From the IMG/VR virus record IMGVR_UViG_3300025872_000001: a DNA stretch of 64,000 nucleotides; one strand, given 5' to 3'. This document shows, piece after piece, positions 1 through 17,872 of the stretch. Origin of the DNA: a virus. Both the position numbers and the translations under genes were made by a program. Every line of letters begins with the position of its first letter. Position 1 is the stretch's first letter. Under the pieces are notes generated by a model. That model had not been told where the DNA came from. It made no database searches and worked only from the letters and a program-made list of their open reading frames with translations.

Positions 1-84
1 ATCGATTGGGAAGGCGTAGACAGGGACGCTGCTGAACAGAAATGGGAACAATATCAAACTGAATTACCTTTTAACACTGTATGA
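1..84 (+). CDS. 3' end of a hypothetical protein (truncated by window start)
   Basis: Open frame 1 (IDWEGVDRDAAEQKWEQYQTELPFNTV*); its TGA overlaps the next ATG (ATGA). Confidence 0.55.
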   Translation: MDWEGVDRDAAEQKWEQYQTELPFNTV

Positions 85-242
85 AAACATTCCGAGTACA
101 ATTCGTTGACGAAATCACTGCCAAGACAGAAGAAGATGCATACGAAGTTCTGCTTCGTTATCTCCGTGACTGTGCAGAGTATGGGGATGCTACCGCATTC
201 CAATTTGAGGAAGTTGAACACAAAGAATATCAGACACATTAA
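81..242 (+). CDS. hypothetical protein, 53 aa (MKTFRVQFVDEITAKTEEDAYEVLL...)
   Basis: Hand translation; ATGA coupling with the upstream gene; below the ORF-track size cut-off. Confidence 0.6.
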   Translation: MKTFRVQFVDEITAKTEEDAYEVLLRYLRDCAEYGDATAFQFEEVEHKEYQTH

Positions 243-246
243 AAAT

Positions 247-262
247 TGTTCCACGTAGAACA
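247..262. promoter_or_regulatory. parS-like site TGTTCCACGTAGAACA
   Basis: One mismatch from the palindrome TGTTCCACGTGGAACA, a form of the chromosomal ParB-binding parS. Confidence 0.5.
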
Positions 263-274
263 TTTGTTGCGAAA

Positions 275-302
275 CCTCCCTACTTGCTTATAAGTGGGGA
301 GG
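275..302. terminator. hairpin between convergent transcription units
   Basis: CCTCCCTACTT-gcttat-AAGTGGGGAGG, 11-bp stem; no clear U-tract. Confidence 0.35.
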
Positions 303-405
303 AAACGTAACATTAACGACTTAGTCTTAAATAAATAAAAGGTGAATCAATAACGAGTTAATAGTAAATAAATAACATATGGTAGGATTGGGGAAAATTC
401 CCCAG

Positions 406-420
406 CCGGGCCTGGCCCGG
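406..420. repeat. 15-bp palindrome CCGGGCCTGGCCCGG, copy 1
   Basis: Read directly; 7-1-7 inverted repeat. Confidence 0.95.
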
Positions 421-500
421 ATTCACGAACCCTTGGCACGCAATGAGTTACAAAACTCGACAACCCGGATTGGTGAAGCGCTGGTATTCAACGAGTTACA

Positions 501-515
501 CCGGGCCTGGCCCGG
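501..515. repeat. 15-bp palindrome, copy 2 (followed by TATATAG array 516-548)
   Basis: Read directly. Confidence 0.95.
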
Positions 516-564
516 CTCTATATAGCGCTATAGTCAGCACTATATAGGCGGGGGGTTAGTTATA

Positions 565-891
565 TCATCCCTCGTAGTGAGCGTATGTATATACAGTCGG
601 GAGACTGACCGCAAACTTTGCGGCGATCTCGTACAGGTGCAGGGCGCAATCCCTGCGGCGAGTGCGGCGGGGAAGCTTCTGAGCATAGAACGCAATCTTC
701 CAGCGCTCATCTTCATTCAGCCAGCCGTTGCGCCTGTATAGAGTCACGGCAGACTCACGCGCAAACATCTTCTCGGCTTCCTCCGGTGTCTTGTCGCTGT
801 ATTCTTCAAGATTCTTCAGAGCCTTTTCGATTCGCTTCTGTTGAATCTGATAACGGGTACGCATCCACTCCAACTTGGTTTTGGTATTCAT
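565..891 (-). CDS. putative DNA-binding protein with C-terminal HTH (108 aa)
   Basis: Start moved to MNTKTK (the longer ORF runs through a terminator); C-terminal LYEIAAKFAVSLPTVYTY resembles an HTH. Confidence 0.55.
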   Translation of the reverse strand: MNTKTKLEWMRTRYQIQQKRIEKALKNLEEYSDKTPEEAEKMFARESAVTLYRRNGWLNEDERWKIAFYAQKLPRRTRRRDCALHLYEIAAKFAVSLPTVYTYAHYEG

Positions 892-956
892 CGCAATTTT
901 TTTTTGAGCAAAACAAACAAAAGTATTAAGAAAAGCGCAATTTGATAAAGCAAGGG

Positions 957-985
957 AAAAAAGGGGGGCGCTGTCACCGCCCCCC
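957..985 (-). terminator. intrinsic terminator after the DUF932 gene
   Basis: Minus strand GGGGGGCG-gtgacag-CGCCCCCC-TTTTTT. Confidence 0.85.
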
Positions 986-991
986 GTTTGA

Positions 992-1756
992 TCAGACCGC
1001 AACCTCCGGTTTGATGTCAACCGTCAAGTTCAGACCCGCGAAGGGGTCGAGGATGCTGTGCAGGGCTTGGCTACGCTTGGGCAGCGCGATCAGGTTGCCC
1101 TTGTACACCTCGGTGAAGGCGTTGTGCAGGGACCAGAGGTTGCGCGGGGCAAACTCCTCATGCGCGGGCTTCTCCCATTGGTCGAGAACGTCGGCAATCA
1201 TCGTCTTGCCAACCGCGCCAGCGCGGTAGCCGCGCAGGATGAGGGTGCCAGCCTCGTCATCGGTGAGAGGGGTCGCCTCGTACTTGGCAACGCGAGCCTC
1301 CTGCTTGTTCCACATATCGGAGAGCGCGCCGATTCCACGCGAAACGATTTGCGGCAGATCGCGCAGGACGTTGGTCGTGTGCTTGCGGGCAAACACGATC
1401 TCGTTATGGAAAACGAGATTGGAGCAGACAAACGGCGCATTGCCAGCGCAGAAGCCAGCAGGGAAGCACTTGTCATGCGAGTTGCGCAGACCGACAACGG
1501 TGCCAGAGGAACCCTGCTTGCCCATGTCGATCTCGAAAAGACCGAAGTAACGCTGACCGAAACGGGCAGTCGTGTGCAGTTCCTGCTTGATCGCAAGACC
1601 CGCAACCTTCATCTGCTCGCGAAAGATCGAAACGAGGTTCGCGTGAGGGATCGGCTGATACGTCTCGGTGGCATTGGGTGTCGGAACCTTGGCGAGATCG
1701 GCAAGGCTGATTTGGGAATTGTCTGCGCCGCAGACATGGAGGTTTACGCTGTTCAT
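992..1756 (-). CDS. DUF932/DUF945-family protein
   Basis: Motifs TYQPIPH, GLRNSHDK, FVCSNL, RNLWSLHNAFTE. Confidence 0.8.
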   Translation of the reverse strand: MNSVNLHVCGADNSQISLADLAKVPTPNATETYQPIPHANLVSIFREQMKVAGLAIKQELHTTARFGQRYFGLFEIDMGKQGSSGTVVGLRNSHDKCFPAGFCAGNAPFVCSNLVFHNEIVFARKHTTNVLRDLPQIVSRGIGALSDMWNKQEARVAKYEATPLTDDEAGTLILRGYRAGAVGKTMIADVLDQWEKPAHEEFAPRNLWSLHNAFTEVYKGNLIALPKRSQALHSILDPFAGLNLTVDIKPEVAV

Positions 1757-1810
1757 TTTTTTATTTGGTTGAGGTTGACGAAAAGAAGTTTGGAGAGATT
1801 TGCGCAGAGT

Positions 1811-2002
1811 TCAAGAACTTTTTTGATTAATTTTCGCGGCGAATTCGGCGGCGTTGCGATCCGTTTCGTCGGCCCTTTCGTTGAGCCACTTCTGGAACGC
1901 TTGGTGGTCCTTGATCTCGACACCAGGAATCTTGTGATAGAAGGCGATGCTGGTGAGAGCGCCGCGCATCGAACCGTACATGATAGGATAATCGTTATTC
2001 AT
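1811..2002 (-). CDS. hypothetical protein (63 aa), leaderless first gene of a cassette
   Basis: ORF track; promoter -10 ends 7 nt before the ATG. Confidence 0.7.
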   Translation of the reverse strand: MNNDYPIMYGSMRGALTSIAFYHKIPGVEIKDHQAFQKWLNERADETDRNAAEFAAKINQKSS

Positions 2003-2009
2003 CGCGAGC

Positions 2010-2037
2010 AGTCTACAAGGTGCAGTTACACTTGCAA
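2010..2037 (-). promoter_or_regulatory. sigma70-like promoter TTGCAA-N16-TAGACT
   Basis: Same geometry as the other cassette promoters; A-tract upstream. Confidence 0.7.
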
Positions 2038-2075
2038 ACTTTTTTTTGCGTTAAATTGAATTTTTTTTCGCGGAG

Positions 2076-2105
2076 CGTGGAACATTTTTGGCGTCGTGGA
2101 ACATT
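2076..2105. repeat. two CGTGGAACATT half-parS-like repeats, 19 bp apart
   Basis: Read directly at 2076 and 2095. Confidence 0.85.
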
Positions 2106-2145
2106 TCATTTTGGAATGAACTCTCTTTTCGGCTTGACGGCCAGG

Positions 2146-2160
2146 CCGGGCCAGGCCCGG
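2146..2160. repeat. 15-bp palindrome CCGGGCCAGGCCCGG, copy 3
   Basis: Read directly; preceded by CTTGAC, followed by TATATA array. Confidence 0.95.
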
Positions 2161-2209
2161 TTTGATACAGCACCCTATATAGAGCGCTATATCAACCAGA
2201 CTTTATATA

Positions 2210-2542
2210 TTAAAATGAGCGTCGAGCAAGAAGATTATTCTCTACATAATCCTTTGCATCCTTGAGCGAAGTGTTGGGGACAAGAGTGCGGACCGCTTTG
2301 ATCAGAGCAATCTTGTTGGGGCAAATGCCCTTGCCAGCGCGATACTCTTCTTGAATGTTCATAGCTTCATCGTAAATCGATGCAATTGCATTGCGAACTT
2401 CGAAATCGAGAAGCGAATTGATCTTCGGGATCGAAGGGACAATAGGCTGTGACACAATGTCGATTTCGATCTGATGATGCTCCAGCCCAGTTTTGGCGGC
2501 GAAAGCATCGATGATGTCGGTTCTGTTGATGACGAGTTTCAT
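2210..2542 (-). CDS. protein with C-terminal ribosomal bL12 (L7/L12) CTD-like motif (110 aa)
   Basis: KIALIKAVRTLVPNTSLKDAKDYVE resembles bL12 KIxVIKxVRxxTGLGLKEAKDLVE; start moved to MKLVIN. Confidence 0.65.
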   Translation of the reverse strand: MKLVINRTDIIDAFAAKTGLEHHQIEIDIVSQPIVPSIPKINSLLDFEVRNAIASIYDEAMNIQEEYRAGKGICPNKIALIKAVRTLVPNTSLKDAKDYVENNLLARRSF

Positions 2543-2546
2543 AGTA

Positions 2547-2759
2547 TTATGATTTGAGGAAGCCGTGATGTTTGAGGAGATTTTCATACTCTGCAAGCAA
2601 TTTCTTTTTGTCGCGAGTGCGGGAACTGCACATTTTGCGAACATGGTTGGAAACAGAACCGCGTGAATTAGTCATGCCCAGAGTTTCAAGCTTAAGCGCG
2701 CTTCTGAAAGCGAGCAAGCGATATGCGAGAATAGCGGAGGGAGTGTCAGCAATGATCAT
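2547..2759 (-). CDS. hypothetical basic protein (70 aa)
   Basis: ORF track; packs 4 nt before the next gene. Confidence 0.7.
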   Translation of the reverse strand: MIIADTPSAILAYRLLAFRSALKLETLGMTNSRGSVSNHVRKMCSSRTRDKKKLLAEYENLLKHHGFLKS

Positions 2760-2850
2760 AGTAGTAAATTGGAGCCGCGCTGCTCATCTCCTATATGATG
2801 AGTGATTAGGGAGTCTTCACGGCTTTGGTTTCTCCCCGTCAGCAAGAGAG

Positions 2851-2878
2851 AGAATGACAGAGTGTGCGCGGTGTGCAA
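2851..2878 (-). promoter_or_regulatory. sigma70-like promoter TTGCAC-N16-CATTCT, followed by an 84-nt leader
   Basis: Same -10 and CTCTC discriminator as the promoters at 5743 and 6450. Confidence 0.7.
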
Positions 2879-2933
2879 CATTTATTTTGAATTTATTTTC
2901 AGTTGCGAGAGAGATTTTGCTTGACACGCACAG

Positions 2934-2948
2934 CCGGGCCAGGCCCGG
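2934..2948. repeat. 15-bp palindrome, copy 4
   Basis: Read directly; preceded by CTTGACA. Confidence 0.95.
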
Positions 2949-2994
2949 ATGCCAAGCCGCAACCAAAAAGTTACAGCAAGGCTCCGATTTTTTA

Positions 2995-3510
2995 TTAGCT
3001 TTCTTCCTCGACTTCCTCCTCCCAACTAAACTCGTCAATTGCAATCTTTTTCCATGCATCAGTTGAAGAGTCGTCTTCGTGTTCTCCGGTTTGATACTCG
3101 CCACCTTCCCAAATGCTGTAGCCAACAAAGCCCATTCCCTCTTCAAGATAAGCAAGCTTGAATTTTAATTCGGGGAACTTGGCTGACAATGCTTGAATCG
3201 CCATTTGAGGCGGCGACCATGCAGTTGTAAAGCACAGCACCATCAACGTCGGGTCGTACTGCTGGATGTCAACTTCATCAATGTCCCACTTGGTTCCCCA
3301 ATTCTGAACGCGCCAATCATACCAATCATACGCGCCATACTTCTCCTTGAATTCATTACGTTTGGCGTGCTTGTCGTTGAATGGTTCAGAGTCTTTCAAC
3401 TCTTCGGGCATTGGGAGAATTTTATTGAACGAGAAAACGTCACCCATCCACTCATTAAAGCGCGTGAAGTCACCGCTGACATACAGGTTATTGGCACACC
3501 AGTTAGGCAT
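2995..3510 (-). CDS. YubB/DUF1281-like ferredoxin-fold protein
   Basis: MPNWCxN start, WYDWRVQNWGTKWD, FTTAWSPP motifs. Confidence 0.75.
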   Translation of the reverse strand: MPNWCANNLYVSGDFTRFNEWMGDVFSFNKILPMPEELKDSEPFNDKHAKRNEFKEKYGAYDWYDWRVQNWGTKWDIDEVDIQQYDPTLMVLCFTTAWSPPQMAIQALSAKFPELKFKLAYLEEGMGFVGYSIWEGGEYQTGEHEDDSSTDAWKKIAIDEFSWEEEVEEES

Positions 3511-3515
3511 AGGAT

Positions 3516-3698
3516 TTAATCGTTTAGGTTATTATCGTCGCAATAGATTGTCATTCCCTTGTCGTAACCAGCCTTGTAATCGCTGCCAGCGTTGGGGCTG
3601 TTCATTTTTTTCACAGCCTCGTAATCGTATGAGCCTTTGTTGTAAGCATCAAGCACACCGCGCAGGTATGCGTAGGTAGGTTCAATCATTGGTTTCAT
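3516..3698 (-). CDS. hypothetical protein (60 aa)
   Basis: ATGA coupling with the upstream gene. Confidence 0.65.
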   Translation of the reverse strand: MKPMIEPTYAYLRGVLDAYNKGSYDYEAVKKMNSPNAGSDYKAGYDKGMTIYCDDNNLND

Positions 3699-4054
3699 AT
3701 TTGAGCAAAGATTCTTTTCCCGTAGATGGCAACGTAACGGGCATTTTTAATTGGCGACCCATCCTTTGCAAGCACAAAAGTGGAATACTTGTAGGGATTG
3801 TAAGTCACCTCCACAGAATTCTCGGGGATAACTTGGCTGATTGCTGTGCGGAGATAATTGTCCCAATCGCCGCGCACCCATGCGTGAACATTCTTGCGCT
3901 TGTTCTTCAGCACACGCTGCCGCCCCGCCTCACTAACGTGGAACGTGGGGTTGTCGAGGGTAATCGCAGGGGCGTGGGCAATCACTTTCCCATTGACACG
4001 AATCGACAGCATGTGTTTATGCAGGTTGAAGTAGACTTCCGTTTTGATTTTCAT
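3695..4054 (-). CDS. conserved phage hypothetical protein
   Basis: VYFNLHK, GRQRVLxxKRKNVHA, YNPYK motifs; ATGA coupling. Confidence 0.7.
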   Translation of the reverse strand: MKIKTEVYFNLHKHMLSIRVNGKVIAHAPAITLDNPTFHVSEAGRQRVLKNKRKNVHAWVRGDWDNYLRTAISQVIPENSVEVTYNPYKYSTFVLAKDGSPIKNARYVAIYGKRIFAQI

Positions 4055-4269
4055 GATTCTTGTTCAGCAAACATTTCTTCCCAGACATGGGGAGGAGTAC
4101 CAGTCATGATGAACTCGCGCTCATCAGCGGTCAAGAAAAAAAATGCTTCTTGAATCAGCGCGCCAAGATCGCATTTCATCAAAGCCGTGGCGTATTGCTC
4201 TTCAGTCATCGTGGGAAAATCCATCGTGTAGATTTGCCCGTTGAATTGGCATCGTTTGGTTAGTTGCAT
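4051..4269 (-). CDS. conserved phage hypothetical protein (72 aa), leaderless
   Basis: LIQEAFxxLTADEREFIMTG motif; promoter directly upstream. Confidence 0.7.
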   Translation of the reverse strand: MQLTKRCQFNGQIYTMDFPTMTEEQYATALMKCDLGALIQEAFFFLTADEREFIMTGTPPHVWEEMFAEQES

Positions 4270-4276
4270 GGTTAAG

Positions 4277-4304
4277 AGTGTGAATAAAAAATCCGTGAGT
4301 GCAA
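4277..4304 (-). promoter_or_regulatory. sigma70-like promoter TTGCAC-N16-CACACT
   Basis: 7 nt upstream of ATG 4269. Confidence 0.65.
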
Positions 4305-4358
4305 CAGCAAAAGAAGAAACAACAAATAAATAAATACGAAATAATGCTTGACAACCCG

Positions 4359-4452
4359 CCGGGCCTGGCCCGGAATCCTCACCTGGTGCACCTGGCGAAT
4401 AAAAAATCTGCGCTCTCGCGAAATTTTCGGTTTTCTGCCGGGCCTGGCCCGG
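4359..4452. repeat. palindrome copies 5 and 6 (4359-4373, 4438-4452) enclosing a 64-bp core
   Basis: Near-duplicate of 6607-6700. Confidence 0.95.
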
Positions 4453-4575
4453 ATTATATAGCGCCTATATAGCACTATACAATCACTATATAGTTTCGGT
4501 GGTGTTTAATGAAGGGCAACGAAACCTCCCCATGCCGCAAGCTCTCCTTGCGTACTATTCCACCGAAAAAATTAT

Positions 4576-4803
4576 TTAGTTAGCATAAGCCAAGCGGCCT
4601 TCTGTAGTCACTAGAGGGCGGCGACCTTCGGCTCCCTCTAGATACTCTATAACCTCCGCGCTAGTGGCGAGGCGCATATAAGAGTTAGGCCACCCCACAA
4701 GATCTTCCCGATGATAAGAGGTCGCGCATACACGCGGACCCGTTGCAATCACGCGCTCCACTCGGCGCGTCCTTGTATTATACCACAGTTGACCGTTTTT
4801 CAT
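4576..4803 (-). CDS. hypothetical protein (75 aa, MKNGQLWYN...)
   Basis: ATGA coupling to the hydrolase stop. Confidence 0.65.
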   Translation of the reverse strand: MKNGQLWYNTRTRRVERVIATGPRVCATSYHREDLVGWPNSYMRLATSAEVIEYLEGAEGRRPLVTTEGRLAYAN

Positions 4804-5306
4804 TTGTAGAAGATATGATGATTGATTTGAACCGTCTTGACAAGCTTTTTCGCCCAACTCGGGGAAACTTTTTCGGCGTGATAATGCGTCGCGCCGTTGG
4901 TGTAATTCGTTTTCTGATTAACTAAAGCGAGAGCCTGTGACCATTTCGGATGGCGCTTTGCTTTCGCGATTCCGTCCTCGACGTTTTTTCCATTCCAACA
5001 CGAAAATTGTTTCGGCGCGAGAATGACGGCAAGTTCCGTTTTATTCTTGGCGCGATTCGCGATCACCTCGCGAACCGCCGCCATTGCGCGGGGATCAGCC
5101 TCCCCACCCGCTTCCAAGATCAGAGTCGCCGCCACAATCTCCCCACGCGAGACGGTGACCGTGGTGGTCTGCCCCCGCAGCGATAAGACGGCCCCAAAAA
5201 GCAGCGTCAGCAGTAACAACCGAAAAACCGCGCAAAGCAAGATGCTTTTCAACAAGCTCGGTGTTCCATTCATATTTTTGCAGGAGGTATGCGAATTGTC
5301 TTTCAT
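4800..5306 (-). CDS. SleB/Hydrolase_2-family cell wall hydrolase with hydrophobic N-terminal segment (start uncertain)
   Basis: TLILEAGGE, VIANR, KQFSCWN, TNGATHYHA, PSWA, HHIFY motifs. Confidence 0.85.
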   Translation of the reverse strand: MKDNSHTSCKNMNGTPSLLKSILLCAVFRLLLLTLLFGAVLSLRGQTTTVTVSRGEIVAATLILEAGGEADPRAMAAVREVIANRAKNKTELAVILAPKQFSCWNGKNVEDGIAKAKRHPKWSQALALVNQKTNYTNGATHYHAEKVSPSWAKKLVKTVQINHHIFYK

Positions 5307-5319
5307 TTACTGATTTCAT
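5095..5319 (-). CDS. hypothetical protein overlapping the hydrolase 5' end
   Basis: ATGA coupling with the 5316 stop; long out-of-frame overlap. Confidence 0.4.
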   Translation of the reverse strand: MKSVNERQFAYLLQKYEWNTELVEKHLALRGFSVVTADAAFWGRLIAAGADHHGHRLAWGDCGGDSDLGSGWGG

Positions 5320-5504
5320 GAGGTGACCTTGGTGGCGTATTCTTCTGCGCGCTTTTCCATCTCAACAAGCTCGCGGTCAATCTTGGCGCGGAATTCCGCG
5401 ACAGCCTTGCGGCTCATATTCACGGGGAGGTAAAGGTCGATACTCTTGAGGAGGCTTTCCATGCCGCCCTTGAGGTAGATTTCTTTGAGTTCGTTTTTGT
5501 TCAT
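5316..5504 (-). CDS. hypothetical protein (62 aa), leaderless
   Basis: ORF track; promoter 7 nt upstream. Confidence 0.7.
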   Translation of the reverse strand: MNKNELKEIYLKGGMESLLKSIDLYLPVNMSRKAVAEFRAKIDRELVEMEKRAEEYATKVTS

Positions 5505-5511
5505 GAGAGAG

Positions 5512-5539
5512 AGTGTGGAGATTTTTTTTGTTTCGTCAA
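5512..5539 (-). promoter_or_regulatory. sigma70-like promoter TTGACG-N16-CACACT
   Basis: CTCTCTC then ATG 5504. Confidence 0.7.
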
Positions 5540-5549
5540 CAACTTTTTT

Positions 5550-5735
5550 TCACTTTTTGAACCAGCGGAAAACGGTGCGATTCGCGGAGGAAAATTCGAC
5601 GATGTACTCCGTGAAGGTAGCGGGGACAATTTGGAAAACGTCGTTTTTCATGGCGCGAGCTTGGCACGCTTTCCAAGCGAGTTCGCAACCCGAACCCTGC
5701 GCGATGATGATTGAAGACCAGCGGTAGTTTTTCAT
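5550..5735 (-). CDS. hypothetical protein (61 aa), paralogue of 6732-6926
   Basis: Start moved to MKNYRW; aligns with 6732-6926. Confidence 0.75.
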   Translation of the reverse strand: MKNYRWSSIIIAQGSGCELAWKACQARAMKNDVFQIVPATFTEYIVEFSSANRTVFRWFKK

Positions 5736-5742
5736 GAGAGAG

Positions 5743-5770
5743 AGAATGACGAAAAAATCCGTGAAGTCAA
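5743..5770 (-). promoter_or_regulatory. sigma70-like promoter TTGACT-N16-CATTCT
   Basis: CTCTCTC then ATG 5735. Confidence 0.75.
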
Positions 5771-5796
5771 ATTTTTTTTCAGATTTTTTTTTGGAG

Positions 5797-5883
5797 CGTG
5801 GAACATTCTGCGCGTCGTGGAACATTTCATTTTAAATTGAAAGTTCATTTTCGCTTGACGGCAGGGCGCCGGGCCTGGCCCGG
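5797..5883. repeat. intergenic module: 2x CGTGGAACA (5797, 5816), CTTGAC, palindrome copy 7 (5869-5883)
   Basis: Near-duplicate of 2076-2160. Confidence 0.9.
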
Positions 5884-5938
5884 ATTTATATAACACTATA
5901 TAAAGGGATGTAGAGTCCCTATATAGAGAGTCTATATA

Positions 5939-6208
5939 TCACTCGCCCATACTATAGTGGTCATCATAGGCGGACCCGTAGTCCTCGTCGGTGCCGAGGC
6001 CAGCAGACGCGAGGGCATCCGCATCCGCCTCCGCATCGGTGCGGAAGCCGTCAAACGGCTCCTCCTCGTTGGCGGCGTTATAGGACGCCTGTAGGGTGTC
6101 GATGACCGCATCAAGCTGCGGCGCGTTCATCGCGTCGGCGGCATCGCGCAGCGCGGCGAGAACGAGGGAGGCTTCGGTGAGGGTGAGGGCGAGGTTGATC
6201 TGGTTCAT
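5939..6208 (-). CDS. hypothetical acidic protein (89 aa), leaderless
   Basis: ORF track; D/E-rich C-terminus DAEADADALASAGLGTDEDYG. Confidence 0.75.
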   Translation of the reverse strand: MNQINLALTLTEASLVLAALRDAADAMNAPQLDAVIDTLQASYNAANEEEPFDGFRTDAEADADALASAGLGTDEDYGSAYDDHYSMGE

Positions 6209-6215
6209 GGGGATA

Positions 6216-6243
6216 AAAGTAAGAAAAAATTCGTGCAGGTAAA
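6216..6243 (-). promoter_or_regulatory. sigma70-like promoter TTTACC-N16-TACTTT
   Basis: 7 nt upstream of ATG 6208. Confidence 0.6.
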
Positions 6244-6256
6244 GAAAAAAGTGAAA

Positions 6257-6284
6257 GAAAAAAAGGGGCGCTCAGAGCGCCCCC
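6257..6284 (-). terminator. intrinsic terminator overlapping the stop of 6272-6442
   Basis: GGGGCGCTC-t-GAGCGCCCC inverted repeat followed by a T-run on the minus strand. Confidence 0.75.
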
Positions 6285-6442
6285 GAATCGACAAGGGCCG
6301 CGAGGCGATCCCAAGCGGCGTCAACTTCGTCGTTGATGGCGTTGACCATATCAAACCAAGCGTGCAGATCGGCGCGGTCAGCGTCGGTCAGATTGGCGTA
6401 CTCGGCGGCGGCGTTGCTGGGGAGGGAGTTGATGAGGTTCAT
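6272..6442 (-). CDS. hypothetical acidic protein (56 aa, MNLINSLPSNAAAEYANLTDADRADLHAWFD...)
   Basis: Hand translation; has its own promoter and terminator; absent from the ORF track. Confidence 0.75.
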   Translation of the reverse strand: MNLINSLPSNAAAEYANLTDADRADLHAWFDMVNAINDEVDAAWDRLAALVDSGAL

Positions 6443-6449
6443 GAGAGAG

Positions 6450-6477
6450 AGAATGAAACTTTTTTCGGTGCGGTCAA
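6450..6477 (-). promoter_or_regulatory. sigma70-like promoter TTGACC-N16-CATTCT
   Basis: CTCTCTC then ATG 6442; phased A-tracts upstream (6479-6510). Confidence 0.75.
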
Positions 6478-6514
6478 CTTTTTTTTCAGATTTTTTTCAG
6501 ATTTTTTTTCAGAG

Positions 6515-6575
6515 TGTGGAACATTTCGCGCATCGTGGAACATTTTCGTGGAACATTTTTTTCTGCGTGGAACAT
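6515..6575. repeat. four GTGGAACATT half-parS-like repeats
   Basis: At 6515, 6534, 6547, 6566. Confidence 0.85.
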
Positions 6576-6606
6576 TTTTTTTTCTTGACACGCGCCTGGC
6601 GCGGGG

Positions 6607-6700
6607 CCGGGCCTGGCCCGGAATCTTAGCCTGGTGCACCTGGCGAATAAAAAATTTACCGTCTCGCGAAATTTTGGGTTTTTCACCGGGCCTGGCCCGG
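6607..6700. repeat. palindrome copies 8 and 9 (6607-6621, 6686-6700) enclosing a 64-bp core
   Basis: Near-duplicate of 4359-4452. Confidence 0.95.
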
Positions 6701-6731
6701 ATTTATATAGCGCTATATAAACCCTTATATA

Positions 6732-6926
6732 TTATTTACGAAACCAGCGCACAATTGTTATATGGCCCTTCGGTATAACAACTATATATTCCTCGCCCAA
6801 CGCTTTAGCAATTTCGAAGTGGGTGCCACTCATTGCGTTTGCTTGCTGGGTAGCGAAGGCCGCAGCGCAATCCGCGCCGCGAGCAATTATCTGAGACGCC
6901 CAACCGTAGTGCATTTGTTTTTTCAT
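6732..6926 (-). CDS. hypothetical protein (64 aa), paralogue of 5550-5735
   Basis: Shared pattern YxWxSxIIAxGxxC..A...QAxAM....FxI....EYIV....RWFxK. Confidence 0.75.
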   Translation of the reverse strand: MKKQMHYGWASQIIARGADCAAAFATQQANAMSGTHFEIAKALGEEYIVVIPKGHITIVRWFRK

Positions 6927-6932
6927 GCTGCT

Positions 6933-6960
6933 ACCTTACCAGAAAAACGGCCCCGCGCAA
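6933..6960 (-). promoter_or_regulatory. sigma70-like promoter TTGCGC-N16-TAAGGT
   Basis: 6 nt upstream of ATG 6926; back-to-back with the 7004 promoter. Confidence 0.6.
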
Positions 6961-7003
6961 GTTTTTTTTCGCATTTTTTTCGATTTTTTTTCGCATTTTT
7001 TTC

Positions 7004-7031
7004 TTGCAAGTGTGCGCGCTGCGTGTATCTT
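7004..7031 (+). promoter_or_regulatory. sigma70-like promoter TTGCAA-N16-TATCTT
   Basis: 6 nt upstream of ATG 7038; same hexamers as 7822. Confidence 0.75.
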
Positions 7032-7037
7032 TCCCGC

Positions 7038-7736
7038 ATGAAACTCAATCTCCTGTCAGTAGGTGCAGATGCCAAGACAAGCAAGGGCGAGGCTTTCGGA
7101 TGGCTGACGGCTATTCTCTACCTTGCGCCAGCGCGCCAAGCTGGGCGCGGCGAAGTTTGCACGCATCGGTCAGCTGGATGCACGCTTGCGTGCCTCTACA
7201 CGGCGGGGCGTGGTAAGATGTCCAACGTGCAGCAAGCGCGCATTCGGCGCACTCAATTATTTTTCGATGACTTCGCGACCTTCAAGGCTCTTCTCTTCGC
7301 TGACATCCGCGCATTCGTTGCAAACTGTGAAAAGCAAGGGATGCGCGCTTGTGTTCGCTTGAACGGTACAAGCGACATTGCGTGGGAGCGGCTGGGCGTG
7401 TTCGCTGCGTTCCCTTCCGTGCAGTTCTATGACTATTCGAAGAGTCCGATTCGTGCCTTGCAATTTGCCAAGGGCGCAATGCCGAGCAATTACCATTTGA
7501 CTTTCTCGCGCAGCGAAAGCAACGAAGCGCAAGCAATCGACGTTCTCCGCGCAGGTGGCAACGTGGCGGTTGTGTTCGCGAACTACCTTCCCCCAACGTG
7601 GGAAGGGTTTCCCGTGGTGAACGGTGACGAAAGCGACTTGCGTTTCCTTGACAAGCGCAACGTGGTGGTTGGCCTCAAGGCGAAAGGCGCAGGCAAAAAA
7701 GATGCAACTGGGTTTGTCGTGACCGCAACGCTGTGA
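7038..7736 (+). CDS. GP88-like phage protein (Cys motif, radical-SAM-like)
   Basis: LYLAPA, Cx6Cx3C, RLNGTSD, FYDYSK, NYHLTFS, GDESDLRFLD motifs; start moved to MKLNLL. Confidence 0.8.
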   Translation: MKLNLLSVGADAKTSKGEAFGWLTAILYLAPARQAGRGEVCTHRSAGCTLACLYTAGRGKMSNVQQARIRRTQLFFDDFATFKALLFADIRAFVANCEKQGMRACVRLNGTSDIAWERLGVFAAFPSVQFYDYSKSPIRALQFAKGAMPSNYHLTFSRSESNEAQAIDVLRAGGNVAVVFANYLPPTWEGFPVVNGDESDLRFLDKRNVVVGLKAKGAGKKDATGFVVTATL

Positions 7737-7774
7737 ACGCCGAGCTTTTCCCTCTTGTTTTGTTCTTAGTCCTT

Positions 7775-7799
7775 GCCCTTGCGTTACTTACGCAAGGGC
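7775..7799. terminator. hairpin, possible terminator
   Basis: GCCCTTGCGT-tactt-ACGCAAGGGC. Confidence 0.5.
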
Positions 7800-7821
7800 G
7801 AAGAAAAAGATAAAAAATTCC

Positions 7822-7849
7822 TTGCAATGCGGGGCGCGTGTGCTATCTT
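7822..7849 (+). promoter_or_regulatory. sigma70-like promoter TTGCAA-N16-TATCTT
   Basis: 6 nt upstream of ATG 7856. Confidence 0.75.
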
Positions 7850-7855
7850 AGCAGC

Positions 7856-8038
7856 ATGAAAAACAAAATGATTATCAACGGTAAGGTGGTCGAAGATTAC
7901 AAGCTGCACGTCGAAGGTGATTGCGGTGATGGCTCTTGGATTGAGTGGGCGAAGTTCGAAGATGGAACAGAGCTAGAAGGTGAAGAGCTATTCGAATTCG
8001 AAAAAGTTTACTTGCCCGACTTGGTGTGGGGTAGGTGA
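7856..8038 (+). CDS. hypothetical acidic protein (60 aa), leaderless
   Basis: Start moved to MKNKMI. Confidence 0.7.
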   Translation: MKNKMIINGKVVEDYKLHVEGDCGDGSWIEWAKFEDGTELEGEELFEFEKVYLPDLVWGR

Positions 8039-8263
8039 CACCCTCCCCCATTAATTAAAAATCGCGACCCGCGTTTCCGTGGGGGCGCGGGGGGGGTGGT
8101 ATTTAGTCCGCTCTACCCCAATTTTAAATACCCTAAACTATCTCTTTATCTTCTTCTATATCTATCTTTATCCCTTTATATGTATACTATACTATGCATC
8201 TATGGGGGCTGTGGGGGCTTAATGTGTTATATACGATACGTTATTGGGGGTGTAAAAAGAAGT

Positions 8264-8473
8264 ATGAGAATCAATTCGGACATGGGTTTAGGAGCAGTAG
8301 CAAGAATGTATGAAAAGAACTCAACTTTAGGTTCAGTATCAAAGGCCGCTGATTGGTTTGGGGATGTGGAGAAGATAGATGAACTTAAAAAAGCATTAAT
8401 AATGGCAATTGATTGCGGCAATTTCGATAAAGCTTTGTTTATACTTAAACAGTTACAAACTCTTAAAGCGTAA
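8264..8473 (+). CDS. hypothetical protein (69 aa)
   Basis: Start MRINSD, 7 nt after GTGTAAA (8250). Confidence 0.6.
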   Translation: MRINSDMGLGAVARMYEKNSTLGSVSKAADWFGDVEKIDELKKALIMAIDCGNFDKALFILKQLQTLKA

Positions 8474-8566
8474 CTATTTCTTAACTATCGCAAGATAGCC
8501 TACTGTAAGCATCAATATAAGAACAATAATCAACCAATCTGTTTCTAGATCGTTGTTCTTCTTCAC
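8474..8566 (-). CDS. small membrane peptide (30 aa, GTG start)
   Basis: MKKNNDLETDWLIIVLILMLTVGYLAIVKK; GTGTAAA 7 nt upstream. Confidence 0.45.
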   Translation of the reverse strand: MKKNNDLETDWLIIVLILMLTVGYLAIVKK

Positions 8567-8662
8567 GGGGATATTTACACCCCACGCCCCCATTTATAGA
8601 AAATGGGGAAAATTCCCCAATTCTATTTGTTTAGGTGAACCGGGAAACCGGGGAGGGTCATT

Positions 8663-8764
8663 TTACCAATGATGAATAATATTAATTATAAGGGCAACAT
8701 CAGCGATGATTGCTAAAATCATTAAAACAAATTGAAAGCGCTCACTCTTAGTGTCGAATTTCAT
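8663..8764 (-). CDS. small membrane peptide (33 aa)
   Basis: MKFDTKSERFQFVLMILAIIADVALIINIIHHW; ATGA coupling to the glycosyltransferase. Confidence 0.5.
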   Translation of the reverse strand: MKFDTKSERFQFVLMILAIIADVALIINIIHHW

Positions 8765-9309
8765 TTTTTATTTATTATTTTTTTAAATCTTCTACTAGCT
8801 TGATTTTGCCCAATAACAATTTCATTAGTCTTGATATAGTCTATTTTACAATACGAAAGCGGAAGTTTATAGTAATTTATCTTCCAATTATTTACGATTT
8901 GCTGCAAAACTTTTTGATCCCATTTTTGGGGATTTTCATTATTTAGTTTTATCCACTCGTCTAATAATTTAAAATTATTTTCAGTGGGCTTAAAAAATAA
9001 TGTCCCAGACATTAACTCTTGGCGATAAAAACACAAACCAAGATCCTCATTGATTTGACAGAAAATGTCTGGAGATTTTTTTAAAACAGCATCTGCGTCA
9101 AGCCAAACCACCGGGGTATTTAACTGTTTAAGCTTTTCTTTTATTATATAGGCTTTATATTGACAGTTTTTTTCCCATGTGCCTTTATTTTCAAAAGGCA
9201 CTAAATGTTCATCAGTAAATCCAAACTGTTTTAAAGAAATTCTTAAATTATTTATTTCTTTTTCGTAAGGAGTGTTTTTTGTATATCCGCTTACTATTTT
9301 GTAGTTCAC
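8761..9309 (-). CDS. GT-A glycosyltransferase (nucleotide-diphospho-sugar transferase-like)
   Basis: VVWLDADAV (DxD), SGTLFF, WDQKVLQ, LPLSYC, NQASR. Confidence 0.8.
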   Translation of the reverse strand: MNYKIVSGYTKNTPYEKEINNLRISLKQFGFTDEHLVPFENKGTWEKNCQYKAYIIKEKLKQLNTPVVWLDADAVLKKSPDIFCQINEDLGLCFYRQELMSGTLFFKPTENNFKLLDEWIKLNNENPQKWDQKVLQQIVNNWKINYYKLPLSYCKIDYIKTNEIVIGQNQASRRFKKIINKK

Positions 9310-9338
9310 TATTTTTTTGATTCAGTAAATCTTCAACC

Positions 9339-9971
9339 TTAATCAGTTTCCCTTCGTGAAGTGTGTAATGTTCCTTCGGTATCCTCTGTAGTAATTGAGT
9401 TAGATCCATATAAAGTTTTAGTTAAACGGTCAATTTCTTCTTGGTCAAGGGGAAAGCGTTGGCCCCCGCGATATTCCTTAACTTGAATATAGCTTGGGAC
9501 TTTATTTATGGTTACGCAACGGAGAAACTCTACCTTGCGGCGATTCTCTCTAAGTGGCAAATTATCAAACAGATAAACAAACTCTGCTGGCTCCAAATTA
9601 ATTGATGGAGATTGGATATGCTCGCGAGCATAAATGTCATCCAGCGCGAAATTAAATTCAAAAAGCGCATTCATCACCTTTGCATACTCATAAGTAGCAA
9701 TAGTCAACATGCGAACCTCCCCGATCTCGCGCAGTTTAGCGAGAAACTCCTTTGCGCCGGGTCTCAGGGATGTTTTATACTCATTGTCTTCAACTGTCAC
9801 TGGCACCGCACACTTGCATGGTGTTTCATGATAATCATAAGTGTGAATTAACGTCTCGTCTAAATCAACGAATATGTATGGCTTCATGTCTTTATTCCTT
9901 AAATAAAAATGATAAATATTATATCCATCTCTCGGATCGATGTAGATGGTAGGATATTGTAACTGGGCCAT
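9339..9971 (-). CDS. HAD-superfamily NIF/FCP1-like phosphatase (alternative start 9887)
   Basis: FVDLDETLIHT, LRPGAKEFL, T.AT.EYA, LFDN. Confidence 0.8.
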   Translation of the reverse strand: MAQLQYPTIYIDPRDGYNIYHFYLRNKDMKPYIFVDLDETLIHTYDYHETPCKCAVPVTVEDNEYKTSLRPGAKEFLAKLREIGEVRMLTIATYEYAKVMNALFEFNFALDDIYAREHIQSPSINLEPAEFVYLFDNLPLRENRRKVEFLRCVTINKVPSYIQVKEYRGGQRFPLDQEEIDRLTKTLYGSNSITTEDTEGTLHTSRRETD

Positions 9972-12530: not shown

Positions 12531-12893
12531 ATGGAAAAAGAATTTAATGCATTCATTTCTGAGAACTCAGTGCTTCTTGTCGCTGGCGTAGCCTCTTTGC
12601 TTTTTAAAGAATTTATAATCAATATTGTCAAGAGTCTTATTTTTAGAATGACTTCTGGCTTAAAAGAGGATGATGTTCTTATCTTCTGGGACGGTTCTAA
12701 AAACCCAGCGAGAATTGTTCGGATTGGTTGGATGTCAACAACTTTGTTTCTTTACGATGTAAATGAGCAAGGTATAGTAACTGGCGGACACAGAATAACT
12801 ATGCAAAATGTTAAACTTGAGAATGTTAAGTTGTTGAAGAGATTGTCTATGATTGATGAAGCTGACTTGAAAATGTTTAAAAAGGACAAATAA
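12531..12893 (+). CDS. membrane protein with MscS-like beta-domain
   Basis: TM segment then FKEFIINI...LKEDDV...ARIVRIGWMST. Confidence 0.45.
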   Translation: MEKEFNAFISENSVLLVAGVASLLFKEFIINIVKSLIFRMTSGLKEDDVLIFWDGSKNPARIVRIGWMSTTLFLYDVNEQGIVTGGHRITMQNVKLENVKLLKRLSMIDEADLKMFKKDK

Positions 12894-12902
12894 TAATTTG
12901 TC

Positions 12903-13724
12903 ATGGCTTACGTTTCGTACAATAACATCAGGGCTTTTCTTTCTGCTGGCGATTCACAAAGTTTATCGACAGGATCATATGATATTTTGTATGCATTAAA
13001 TTTTAATGCCAGCAACACAACTCAATTAAAAAGGATTAAAAGAATTGGTCAAGAGCTTGATTATTATATTCAAACAGGTCCAAAAAGCGCATCAATTTCA
13101 ACTTCGGTTATACCCGTCACTGGCGCTGACTTTAATCAGTTTACTGGATTTTTAGCTTTAACTGGAGATTTTACAAGCGGTTCGTATATTCAAGTTCCTA
13201 ATTACAGATTTGATAAATGTTTCTTAAAATCATTTGGGTTTTCTATGGAGCCTTGGAAACCAATTGCGGTAGAAATGCAATTTGATTCTTATGGGTTAGC
13301 TACTGGAGACGGAATTAATTCTTATGCTGGACAAGACTTTCCAACTGGCGCTCAAACAGGAATTGTTTCTCCGTTAAGAGGAATGAGTGTTACTCTTTCT
13401 GCTCCAAATTTTACTCAAACAATAAATCAATACGAAAATTTAAATTTTAACGTTGAAGTTGATCGTGCTCCAAATTTTGAAATAGGTGGAACTTATCCTG
13501 CTAAAGTGAGTGTTTCTAAAATTACAAAATCATTGCAAATTAACGGTATATCCAACATTGATTGGCTTTCTGACTATCAACCTAACACTACTGTCTCTGT
13601 GACAGTAGGAATGCCAGACGGCAACTCGTTTTCAGTTGCTGGAGTACTGAGTTCACAAAGTTTCTCAGTAGATGGCAATGGCGTAGCAAAAGGAGGGCTA
13701 CAGATAGTCGAAGAGATGGTGTAA
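12903..13724 (+). CDS. tail-tube-like virion protein (paralogue of 47189, 58975, 60686)
   Basis: Two repeats of the ..N/SF.....R......G pattern shared with the paralogues. Confidence 0.5.
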   Translation: MAYVSYNNIRAFLSAGDSQSLSTGSYDILYALNFNASNTTQLKRIKRIGQELDYYIQTGPKSASISTSVIPVTGADFNQFTGFLALTGDFTSGSYIQVPNYRFDKCFLKSFGFSMEPWKPIAVEMQFDSYGLATGDGINSYAGQDFPTGAQTGIVSPLRGMSVTLSAPNFTQTINQYENLNFNVEVDRAPNFEIGGTYPAKVSVSKITKSLQINGISNIDWLSDYQPNTTVSVTVGMPDGNSFSVAGVLSSQSFSVDGNGVAKGGLQIVEEMV

Positions 13725-14800: not shown

Positions 14801-15172
14801 ATGGCAAGCGTTTTCTGTACAAATTGTGGAGGCAAGCATGAATATGTTGGATTTGCCCCAAACTTTTGTTCAAAATGTGGAAGTCCCATGAACGGGAAGG
14901 TTTCGACTCAATTACAGAAAAAGCCAGTTAGAACTGCAAGTTCTGAAGATATAGAGGATGAATCAGAAGACAACACAAGTGTCGACGAACTTCCCGATAT
15001 CGATAAGCTTGATGTAGAAATCGAAATGGAAGGGGGCTTTAGGGCTTTTAATTTAGAAGATTTATCGCGTAACCCTCAAGCTGGAGCAAGGAAATTCGCT
15101 CCAAAAAGAGTTGGTGGGATAGACAGCTTGTCCCCCACCAAATATGGAAGCACAAAGGCGCGAGAAGATTAA
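14801..15172 (+). CDS. zinc-ribbon protein
   Basis: FCTNCG...NFCSKCG. Confidence 0.7.
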   Translation: MASVFCTNCGGKHEYVGFAPNFCSKCGSPMNGKVSTQLQKKPVRTASSEDIEDESEDNTSVDELPDIDKLDVEIEMEGGFRAFNLEDLSRNPQAGARKFAPKRVGGIDSLSPTKYGSTKARED

Positions 15173-15854
15173 ATACGAAGACAAGCAAGAAGTTATCGAT
15201 AGGATTATAGAAAAGCACAGATATATCTGGCAGCTTAAAGCTATTGCTTGGATGGATTATGAGGATGTTGCTCAAATCATTCGTTTTCACATTTCAAAAA
15301 AATGGAAAATGTGGAAGCAAGATCGCCCACTTGAACCTTGGATTGCGCGTATTACCGTAAACCAGATCAAGAATCTTCTGCGCAATAATTACTCTAATTA
15401 TGTTCGCCCTTGTTTATCTTGTAAGTTCAGCATGGGCAACGAACCTCCAGCTTGTTCAATAACTCCAAGCGGAAAACAATGTGGCGAATGCCCCTTGTAT
15501 AGAAAATGGGAAAAGACAAAAAAGTGTGCATATGATGTGAAGCTTTCTGTCTCTATAGAAAATCATTCAGAGTCTGTACAGGGGATGAAAGATTTAAACT
15601 TTGATGTTTTATCAAGCGCACAGAGACTTCACGAAGAAATGAAACATCGTTTGGCGCCCAAACAATATAAAGTTTATTCAAGGCTTTATATCGATGGCGC
15701 AGATGAGGAAAAAGTTGCAATGGAAATGGGATACAAAACGAATGAAAAGGGTAAGAAAGCTGGCTATAAACAAATTAAAAATCTTAAAAAGTTATTTAAA
15801 CAGATAGCGACTAAAATCTTACAAGACGAGGATATTTTAGGTGGCCAACAATAA
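15144..15854 (+). CDS. RNA polymerase sigma-factor-like protein with Cys-rich insert
   Basis: Region-2-like YEDVAQ...LEPWIARITVNQIKNLLR; region-4-like LAPKQYKVY...EEKVAMEMG. Confidence 0.65.
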   Translation: MEAQRREKIKYEDKQEVIDRIIEKHRYIWQLKAIAWMDYEDVAQIIRFHISKKWKMWKQDRPLEPWIARITVNQIKNLLRNNYSNYVRPCLSCKFSMGNEPPACSITPSGKQCGECPLYRKWEKTKKCAYDVKLSVSIENHSESVQGMKDLNFDVLSSAQRLHEEMKHRLAPKQYKVYSRLYIDGADEEKVAMEMGYKTNEKGKKAGYKQIKNLKKLFKQIATKILQDEDILGGQQ

Positions 15855-16905: not shown

Positions 16906-17872
16906 CAATTCCAACTGTTGCAAAATATGCCACAGTTCCTTTCCTTCCGAAAGGAGCCTACATGCGCATTTAAAAAAGCACAAGATTGGTCTTGATGAGT
17001 ATTATCTTGCACATTATCCTAGAAAAAACCTGCTAACAGGCACTTATTTGCAATTTAAGGACAAGGAGTCTTATTTTGAAAAGGACTTTGAAAACAGAAA
17101 TCAGCTTTTGAGATGGTGTGAGATAGAATCGCCAGAAACTGTTAAAGCTCAAATTAAAAAAATGCTGGCTTATAGAATAAAAAGCAAAGATTTAAAATAT
17201 GCGCCATGTCATTTAGAGTTGGAAACTAGTGAAATGCCGACAGTTGATTTGTACAAGAAACATTTTGGGTCTTATTCTAATGTTTGTGCAGAAATAGGAA
17301 TTGAGCCTATGTTTAAAAAGAGTTTGCCCAAAAAGTTTTACGAAGATTATTCTAATATTAATATATTTGTTGATACCAGAGAACAGCAGCCTTTAAGCTT
17401 TAAAAGCGAAAAGAAAGTAAAGTTAGATTTTGGCGATTATACCGCTAGCGGTTCAAATTATACAAAAACATTCGTAGATAGAAAGTCAGAATCTGATTTT
17501 AAAGGTACATTAGTTGGTGAAAATCTGGATAGATTTAGGCGTGAACTGCAAAGATGCAAAGATATGGAATGTTATTTATTTATTGTGGTAGAATCTACTT
17601 TAGAACGTATAAGTAGTAACAACGACTTTACTCCTCATAAGGCGAATTTAAAATTTATATATCATAATATGAGATTATTGCAGCATGAGTTTGCAAAAAG
17701 CTGCCAATTTATATTTTCGGGTAACAGAACCAATAGTGAAATTATTATTCCAAAGCTAACTGCCATTGGTAGCGCACTTTGGGATGTAGACGTTCAATAT
17801 TTTATAGACAAGAACTCATCATGGCTTGGATCGAAGGAAACCAAAAAAGAAAAAGCTTATTCCGTAACGTAA
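16895..17872 (+). CDS. C2H2 zinc finger + ERCC4/XPF-type nuclease
   Basis: CKIC...LHAHLKKH; VDTREQ, GDY, VDRKSESD. Confidence 0.75.
   Translation: MQSDNSNCCKICHSSFPSERSLHAHLKKHKIGLDEYYLAHYPRKNLLTGTYLQFKDKESYFEKDFENRNQLLRWCEIESPETVKAQIKKMLAYRIKSKDLKYAPCHLELETSEMPTVDLYKKHFGSYSNVCAEIGIEPMFKKSLPKKFYEDYSNINIFVDTREQQPLSFKSEKKVKLDFGDYTASGSNYTKTFVDRKSESDFKGTLVGENLDRFRRELQRCKDMECYLFIVVESTLERISSNNDFTPHKANLKFIYHNMRLLQHEFAKSCQFIFSGNRTNSEIIIPKLTAIGSALWDVDVQYFIDKNSSWLGSKETKKEKAYSVT

Follow-up and report, generated by a model that had tools for sequence, protein, structure and literature searches.

Why would a large phage keep, at one place in its genome, a dense array of small genes divided again and again by the same elaborate stretch of intergenic DNA? 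The locus that raises this question opens a 64,000-nt window of the viral record IMGVR_UViG_3300025872_000001 from the IMG/VR database (coordinates throughout are 1-based window positions). The source is an uncultivated large freshwater tailed phage, and the small genes of the region, here called the island, are predicted to be separately promoted. A sequence-only reading had described minus-strand gene groups separated by a recurring multi-part module and had proposed that the module serves either a cassette-exchange system or a nucleoprotein scaffold. Our analysis of the window and of related contigs leads us to place a probability of about 60% on a combined role: the region would be a hyperplastic early-gene island of about ten autonomous units, and the module would act both as regulatory junction and as recombination substrate.

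The most distinctive part of the module is a palindrome of 15 bases, CCGGGCCWGGCCCGG, which we call PAL. Nine exact copies, at 406, 501, 2146, 2934, 4359, 4438, 5869, 6607, and 6686, all fall within 406-6700; the remainder of the 64 kb contains none, and 100 shuffles also yielded none (expected 0). The motif GTGGAACAT has eight exact + strand copies at 2077-6575 plus one stray at 32255, and 18 of 29 matches to CTATATA lie in 518-6788, with about nine expected over the whole window. As originally described, the modules are confined to the first ~7 kb. Each of the 16 genes between 565 and 6926 is encoded on the minus strand, as that description also had it.

On the + strand the parts of the module follow one another as T-tracts, two to four GTGGAACA repeats, CTTGAC, a single or paired PAL, TATA boxes, and a stop codon. 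The TATA boxes are 8-bp self-complementary YTATATAR elements that recur every 10-12 bp, in the window as well as at the orthologous sites of relatives. They lie between the stop codons and PAL, which stands 32-56 nt past the stop, or 124 nt in module D (the modules are lettered as in Table 1). The motif copies and the order of sub-elements behind the module claim were confirmed, with one restriction: the full order is kept at 2040-2210, 5770-5940, and 6480-6735, but at 390-560 and 4310-4495 a AAATAAATAAATA stretch replaces the GTGGAACA repeats, and the module at 2880-2950 is without TATA boxes. Repeat finding also recovered the two near-duplicate subtypes noted before, pairing 2063-2146 with 5784-5867 at 80% identity and 4358-4455 with 6606-6703 at 89%; the module at 6480-6735 unites both.

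A 50%-GC block in a 36%-GC phage could be taken for a foreign insert or an assembly chimera, since GC content is ~0.50 at 1-8000 and ~0.36 in the remainder, with an abrupt change at ~8000. That explanation is refuted: at least 10 assemblies, made independently from different samples, contain this GC-rich block flanked by these low-GC genes, and the GC offset between island and rest is kept in all relatives examined. The island is internal to a contig of at least 112 kb, and CheckV estimates for relatives' contigs imply a genome of ~145 kb. The same phage encodes TerL (17779-19689), a 2208-aa tape measure protein, and two tail-fiber proteins of ~2200 aa. Among cultured phages, of which Bacillus phages are the nearest, no TerL exceeds 26% identity to it, and no DNA match to the window was found among the cultured phages of the collection searched.

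Comparison of relatives shows how the cassettes move. Gene-family maps were drawn for 12 islands, that of the window and those of 11 relatives, with P for an exact PAL and p for a copy with at most two mismatches. The window reads PP / 2 3 4 / P / 5 70aa / P / 7 8 9 10 / PP / 11 12 4 13 / P / 14 15 / PP / 13 / GP88>, and relative L113 reads P / 10> 8> / p / <5 <70aa / p / 3> 2> / P / GP88> / P / <12 <74 <7 / P / <14. L113 thus displays both reordering and inversion, with PAL at the inversion junctions, and in L103 the genes 11-12-4 are relocated beside 3. Across related contigs the modules are retained and the cargo is swapped, reordered, and inverted, as the proposal of cassette exchange had anticipated. 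Rearrangements are concentrated at PAL junctions: of 35 adjacent gene pairs separated by a PAL-like site, 6 keep their adjacency in another clade, versus 22 of 50 pairs without such a site (Fisher p = 0.011), a difference weakened by the small number of clades, which are not fully independent.

Between the window and G001, the 7-kb island has undergone at least six indel or replacement events, whereas the next 20 kb, which holds structural genes, is one gap-free match at 91.5%. Two spacer-plus-PAL units are clean, PAL-bounded presence/absence differences; the unit of 80 nt plus PAL in module A shows such a difference against L092, L094, and L095. At the position of module D, L092 and L095 carry one degenerate PAL and the GGGGAAAATTCCCC hairpin. 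Orthologous junctions vary in copy number, with GTGGAACA present twice or four times and PAL once or twice. In L091 and L092 an extra 63-aa gene is inserted at 2766, and an unrelated 61-aa gene replaces gene 2995-3510. The two genes of cassette 2 stay together in all clades, including L113, where the pair is inverted.

The conservation of PAL suggests what it may do. A logo was compiled from 63 distinct PAL-like sites in ten island sequences, one being that of the window and the other nine loci of relatives. Its 7-bp arms are all but fixed (1.6-2.0 bits at each position), and the center base is free (A20/T22/C11/G10). The flanks of the 15-mer remain below 0.5 bits, except for R at position −1. 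Changes in the rare variant copies are uncompensated, and the RNA hairpin that PAL could form is modest, at −11 kcal/mol. Moreover, PAL occupies tandem, convergent, and divergent unit junctions in L113. Constant arms, a free center, and placement at junctions of all three kinds suggest that PAL is the target of a sequence-specific dimeric binder, rather than an RNA hairpin alone. An ordinary terminator could tolerate changes of sequence, and the pattern fits a symmetric site for a dimeric protein. In each relative PAL is restricted to the island, which spans 7-12 kb within contigs of 33-51 kb. Among viral contigs, 10 carry the composite PAL+TATATA; four of these belong to an unrelated phage group of ~30% GC that has a single copy ~45 nt after a DUF7227 gene. 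We rejected the idea that PAL is a host repeat, because a scan of bacterial genomes gave two single, chance-level hits. Also rejected was a reading of the spacers in PAL doublets as remnants of intact cassettes, as these spacers occur in the closest relatives only.

On the promoter side, a TTGAC/TTGCA box (TTGMM) keeps a nearly constant distance from the start codon: exactly 35 nt for the ATGs at 2002, 4269, 5504, 5735, and 6442, but 34 nt for ATG 6926 and for ATG 7038 on the divergent + strand. The geometry is fixed: −35 box, 17 bp, a poor −10 (ATTCTC, ACACTC, or TAGACT), 6 nt, ATG. A-tracts precede the −35 box, with a period of 11-12 nt in module F, and without exception the GTGGAACA repeats are found 40-100 bp upstream of such a box, where activator sites usually lie. 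A −35 box held at 35 nt before the ATG implies leaderless mRNAs, and from the box and its conserved spacing we infer that the island units are transcribed from sigma-70-type promoters.

Several other promoter or origin readings were tried and rejected. A + strand sigma-70 promoter built from CTTGAC and TATATA would have a variable spacing of 26-100 nt, and a sigma-54 or extracytoplasmic function (ECF) site at GTGGAACA would have inconsistent spacing to −12/−10 candidates across copies. PAL fits the 6-bp stem and 3-nt loop of N4-type hairpin promoters; this reading fails because the three giant open reading frames encode tail fibers and a tape measure rather than a virion RNA polymerase, and because a start at PAL would give long leaders. 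A replication origin with iterons was rejected as well, since the repeats recur at three modules, each time upstream of a promoter.

These observations can be assembled into one model. In the sense of transcription, a module would run from the upstream stop codon through three or four YTATATAR boxes 10-12 bp apart to PAL, of the form R-CCGGGCC-N-GGCCCGG-Y and single or in doublet, then to a TTGAC-like box, lineage-specific factor-site repeats (here GTGGAACATTT direct repeats), and helically phased A-tracts, and would end with the TTGAC/TTGCA −35 box, the 17-bp spacer, the weak −10, 6 nt, and the ATG. Most units would be transcribed leaderless, and presumably early, by a sigma-70-type holoenzyme aided by A-tracts that resemble upstream promoter (UP) elements. 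A dimeric protein that recognizes specific sequences would act at PAL and the TATA boxes to mark or insulate the border between units. Because modules of 15-200 bp recur throughout the island and PAL is identical on both strands, general homologous recombination at the modules would delete, duplicate, reorder, and invert cassettes.

Some of our results weigh against this model. PAL is absent from L109-L112, and L109 and L110 nonetheless retain several of the same genes. Since PAL junctions are also unit borders, selection for intact units could produce the adjacency result, rather than a recombination hotspot. Of the four gene-sized indels between the 99%-identical L094 and L095, three have their breakpoints not at PAL but at plain gene borders or within AT-rich promoter DNA. 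A generic sigma-70 scan finds promoters no more often than chance, which we attribute to the poor −10 hexamers. On the minus (sense) strand PAL has no U-run, whereas true U-run terminators exist in the island (Table 1); a terminator scan scores PAL on the + strand only, at 5869 and 6686, so that PAL does not qualify as an intrinsic terminator and any role at 3′ ends is putative. Finally, no candidate PAL-binding protein was identified.

The movement of cassettes could also be the work of a dedicated site-specific system, integron- or invertase-like, with PAL as the crossover site and a recombinase encoded by the host or elsewhere in the ~145-kb genome. A symmetric site would permit excision and integration as well as inversion; invariant arms around a free base recall a crossover core, PAL sits at the L113 inversion junctions, the spacer-plus-PAL units resemble integrations at PAL, and the identical PAL+TATATA turns up in the unrelated ~30% GC phages. 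The sequence-only reading had left room for a recombinase beyond the window. However, five relatives' contigs (~290 kb, fragments) gave no match to Phage_integrase (PF00589), Resolvase, or Y1_Tnp (PF01797). Most close-range indels break away from PAL, each cassette has its own predicted promoter, unlike integron cassettes, and paired-PAL spacers were not found flanking genes elsewhere. We consider such a system improbable. The earlier cassette-exchange proposal is thus supported in part, by the rearrangements, the poorly conserved PAL-spanning adjacencies, and the plasticity of the island relative to the adjacent 20 kb; these results do not demonstrate a dedicated machinery. A bolder variant, which we also think unlikely, is that one PAL protein would serve both as orientation-independent boundary factor and as catalyst or director of cassette excision, integration, and inversion. 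If so, the island would be a phage-borne, promoter-carrying counterpart of the integron, and PAL+TATATA in the unrelated low-GC group would be a sign of exchange between phages.

PAL and its doublets could instead be selfish elements with little regulatory role, comparable to repetitive extragenic palindromic (REP) sequences, REP doublets forming hairpins (REPINs), or miniature inverted-repeat transposable elements (MITEs). The 94-110-bp doublets recur as near-identical copies (89%) at two of the module positions; sub-elements are combined into mosaic modules, as in bacterial interspersed mosaic elements (BIMEs); presence of PAL varies at orthologous sites; and PAL-free sister lineages exist. 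Yet the copies are confined to one island per contig, the place of PAL in the module order is constant, and its arms are exact amid flanks that are 75-80% identical across lineages, which argues for selection on PAL. With no REP-associated tyrosine transposase (RAYT, the Y1 family) in the relatives' contigs and no more than the chance-level bacterial hits noted above, we give selfish spread little credence.

The second half of the original proposal is a nucleoprotein scaffold. A host ParB or similar protein on GTGGAACA and on site 246-261, with further proteins on PAL and the TATA boxes, would organize, anchor, or protect this DNA, for example as the first-injected stretch, and transcription would not be its chief concern. 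The site at 246-261, TGTTCCACGTAGAACA, agrees at 14 of 16 positions with what we take to be the parS consensus, TGTTNCACGTGAAACA, and its half-site is the repeat; TATA boxes and A-tracts are helically phased, and each module offers at least four distinct motifs that resemble binding sites. But parS is an inverted palindrome, and the eight other GTGGAACA copies are direct half-sites spaced 13-19 bp apart. ParB_N had no match in five relatives' contigs, one of them 88% complete. Moreover, the repeats turn over quickly. GTGGAACA and TGTTCCACGTAGAACA are common to the close clade (L091, L092) and absent from L094 and L095, which carry GTGCCAAC-N20-TTGGCAT inverted repeats at the same module position (in L094 at 6712-6750, 12596-12630, and 13488-13525). 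L110 has 12-bp tandems of CCAAGTGTGGAA (1067-1650), L109 has tandems of CCAAGTGGGGGA, and in L113 a palindrome, TACGTAGWWCTACGTA, adjoins PAL. This turnover and the lack of ParB_N fit a fast-evolving phage factor acting upstream of promoters better than a conserved host ParB on parS, and the position of the repeats is that of activator sites. A scaffold of this kind therefore seems unlikely to us, and we favor the model of a regulatory junction that also serves recombination. The features on which it rests are collected in Table 1.

Table 1. Features of the island and its borders, in window coordinates
Feature	Position	Strand	Details
Near-palindrome TGTTCCACGTAGAACA, 16 bp	246..261		Left edge of island; half-site is the GTGGAACA repeat
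Module A, terminal, no promoter after it	390..547		GGGGAAAATTCCCC hairpin 390-403; PAL 406-420; 80-nt spacer; PAL 501-515; three phased TATA boxes 518-547
Cassette 1	565..2002	-	Genes 565-891 (108 aa), 992-1756 (DUF932), 1811-2002 (63 aa)
Canonical intrinsic terminator in cassette 1	985-963	-	With U-run
Module B	2032..2210	-	-35 box TTGCAA 2037-2032, 35 nt before ATG at 2002; T-tracts 2040-2071; GTGGAACA at 2077, 2096; CTTGAC 2133-2138; PAL 2146-2160; TATA boxes 2175-2210
Cassette 2	2210..2759	-	Genes 2210-2542 (110 aa), 2547-2759 (70 aa)
Module C, partial	2830..2994	-	Predicted promoter with ATTCTC-tctctc, ~70-nt leader; CTTGAC 2920-2925; PAL 2934-2948; TATA boxes absent
Cassette 3	2995..4269	-	Genes 2995-3510 (DUF1281_C-like), 3516-3698, 3695-4054 (L5 gp82 family), 4051-4269
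Module D	4270..4493	-	-35 box TTGCAC 4304-4299; AAATAAATAAATA stretch; CTTGAC 4347-4352; PAL 4359-4373; 64-nt promoter-like spacer; PAL 4438-4452; four phased TATA boxes 4454-4493
Structured RNA candidate	4492..4568	-	Between stop of gene 4576-4803 and TATA boxes
Cassette 4	4576..5735	-	Genes 4576-4803, 4800-5306 (cell-wall hydrolase, Hydrolase_2), 5316-5504, 5550-5735; predicted leaderless-type promoters at ATGs 5504 and 5735
Module E	5736..5938	-	-35 box TTGACT 5770-5765; T-tracts; GTGGAACA at 5798, 5817; CTTGAC 5854-5859; PAL 5869-5883; TATA boxes 5886-5938
Cassette 5	5939..6442	-	Genes 5939-6208, 6272-6442; between them, canonical terminator with U-run 6284-6264
Module F	6443..6731	-	-35 box TTGACC 6477-6472; three phased CTGAAAAAAAA tracts; GTGGAACA x4 (6516-6574); CTTGAC 6584-6589; PAL 6607-6621; 64-nt spacer; PAL 6686-6700; TATA boxes 6703-6731
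Last cassette and divergent promoter region	6732..7037		Gene 6732-6926 (-); region 6927-7037 with T/A-tracts; TTGCGC 34 nt before ATG 6926 (-); TTGCAA 34 nt before ATG 7038 (+)
Right-hand border gene, Pfam GP88 family	7038..7736	+	Adjoins the island in every relative

Beyond the modules, the island holds a candidate structured RNA of ~78 nt, a 9-bp closing stem enclosing two hairpins, with compensatory changes at 7 of 22 pairs in six sequences. It is present in one copy per genome in eight sources, and in PAL-less L109 it follows a different gene. Rfam families had no match within 1-9000, this candidate included. The 108-aa protein of cassette 1 has a candidate C-terminal helix-turn-helix. Families of 61-75-aa paralogs recur two or three times per island (1811-2002 with 5316-5504; 5550-5735 with 6732-6926), in relatives L091-L095 as well, and such recurrence within one island suggests cassette duplication. 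Outside the island, many start codons between 8250 and 61856 (for example 23264, 38498, and 52323) are preceded at 8-25 nt by a GTGTAAA box and have no −35 box; GTGTAAA is a predicted second promoter class, used by late genes or the rest of the genome. The gene at 15144-15854 has a weak Sigma70_r2 match just under the cut-off.

The GP88 border gene was considered as a PAL-acting enzyme, given its place beside the island and the occurrence of DUF7227 beside PAL elsewhere. We rejected this because its AlphaFold2 model (predicted local distance difference test score 88) shows nothing nuclease- or recombinase-like; it gives weak matches to TIM-barrel and radical S-adenosylmethionine (radical-SAM)-like folds, and Cys41, Cys48, and Cys52 are invariant. 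The DUF7227 gene near PAL+ATATATA (L001:5141-5821, minus strand) is similar in size to the GP88 gene. L095 (G005) has, at 8280-9641, a 1362-bp insertion relative to L094, directly after a PAL, with which a diverged second copy of a GP88-like gene has entered the + strand of the island. In L111 and L112, whose GP88 gene is 77% identical, GC content is 0.51-0.60, in L111 across the whole 20 kb examined. Three independent contigs (L099, L100, L104) end 51-67 nt upstream of the GP88 start, in the T-tract promoter region, and several more end within the island. True genome ends, assemblies broken by repeats, or heterogeneity among strains could account for this.

It is instructive to set the island beside known systems. 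In T4-type phages, promoter-early stem-loop (PeSL) elements form terminator/promoter cassettes that drive shuffling (Arbiol 2010; Comeau 2014, PMC4122927). The analogy drawn in the sequence-only reading is apt. Both are repeated composite intergenic elements in which a stem-loop at the end of one unit is joined to a sigma-70-type early promoter for the next, a promoter that in the island is predicted, and both are concentrated in a hyperplastic region where small genes of unknown function undergo indels and replacements between close relatives. Here, a stem-loop followed by a predicted promoter is found at five junctions, with the two 90-190 bp apart, other elements between them, and a weak −10. 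There are also differences. This phage is not a T4-like myovirus, as its distant TerL shows. Its palindrome is an exact, invariant 15-mer, whereas the PeSL hairpin is loosely conserved; TATA boxes, a TTGAC box, factor-site repeats, and phased A-tracts separate stem-loop from promoter; the weak promoters are predicted to be leaderless; and inversions are seen. The best fit is thus to regard the island as a probable analog of PeSLs, more elaborate and in an unrelated phage family, rather than as a member of that group.

Other systems share single traits with the island. REP, BIME, and REPIN elements are likewise extragenic palindromes, single or in doublet, within mosaic modules at gene ends; PAL differs as a perfect 15-mer of one phage island, for which no RAYT (PF01797) was found in the five relatives' contigs. 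Integron attC arrays also consist of small-gene cassettes with palindromic separators and cargo that differs between relatives. However, attC sites are imperfect and variable and their cassettes promoterless and co-oriented, whereas here PAL is perfect, the units have their own predicted promoters, inversions occur in L113, and the five relatives' fragmentary contigs contain no integrase (PF00589). The stoperators of mycobacteriophage L5 are many copies of a repressor site placed between transcription units, asymmetric, orientation-dependent, and genome-wide, with a known repressor. PAL resembles them as a short exact intergenic site in many copies with a possible roadblock or boundary role, and differs in being symmetric and island-restricted. 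In the host-takeover module of SPO1 and the pre-early region of T5, numerous small early genes are grouped into short units, each with a strong promoter and terminator, in repeat-rich DNA. The island may resemble them in this clustering and has no sequence relationship to them.

To our knowledge, the mechanism by which phages acquire and shuffle host-takeover and accessory genes has been worked out in few cases, chiefly that of the T4-type PeSLs. The short, defined motifs of the island lend themselves to tests of binding proteins, transcript ends, and recombination junctions, and the invariant arms of PAL around a free center base make it a good bait for its binder. Overall, our analysis suggests that this phage family displays the PeSL logic in a richer form, with an exact palindrome at each border between units, lineage-specific factor sites, a predicted leaderless design, and inversions and reordering among relatives.

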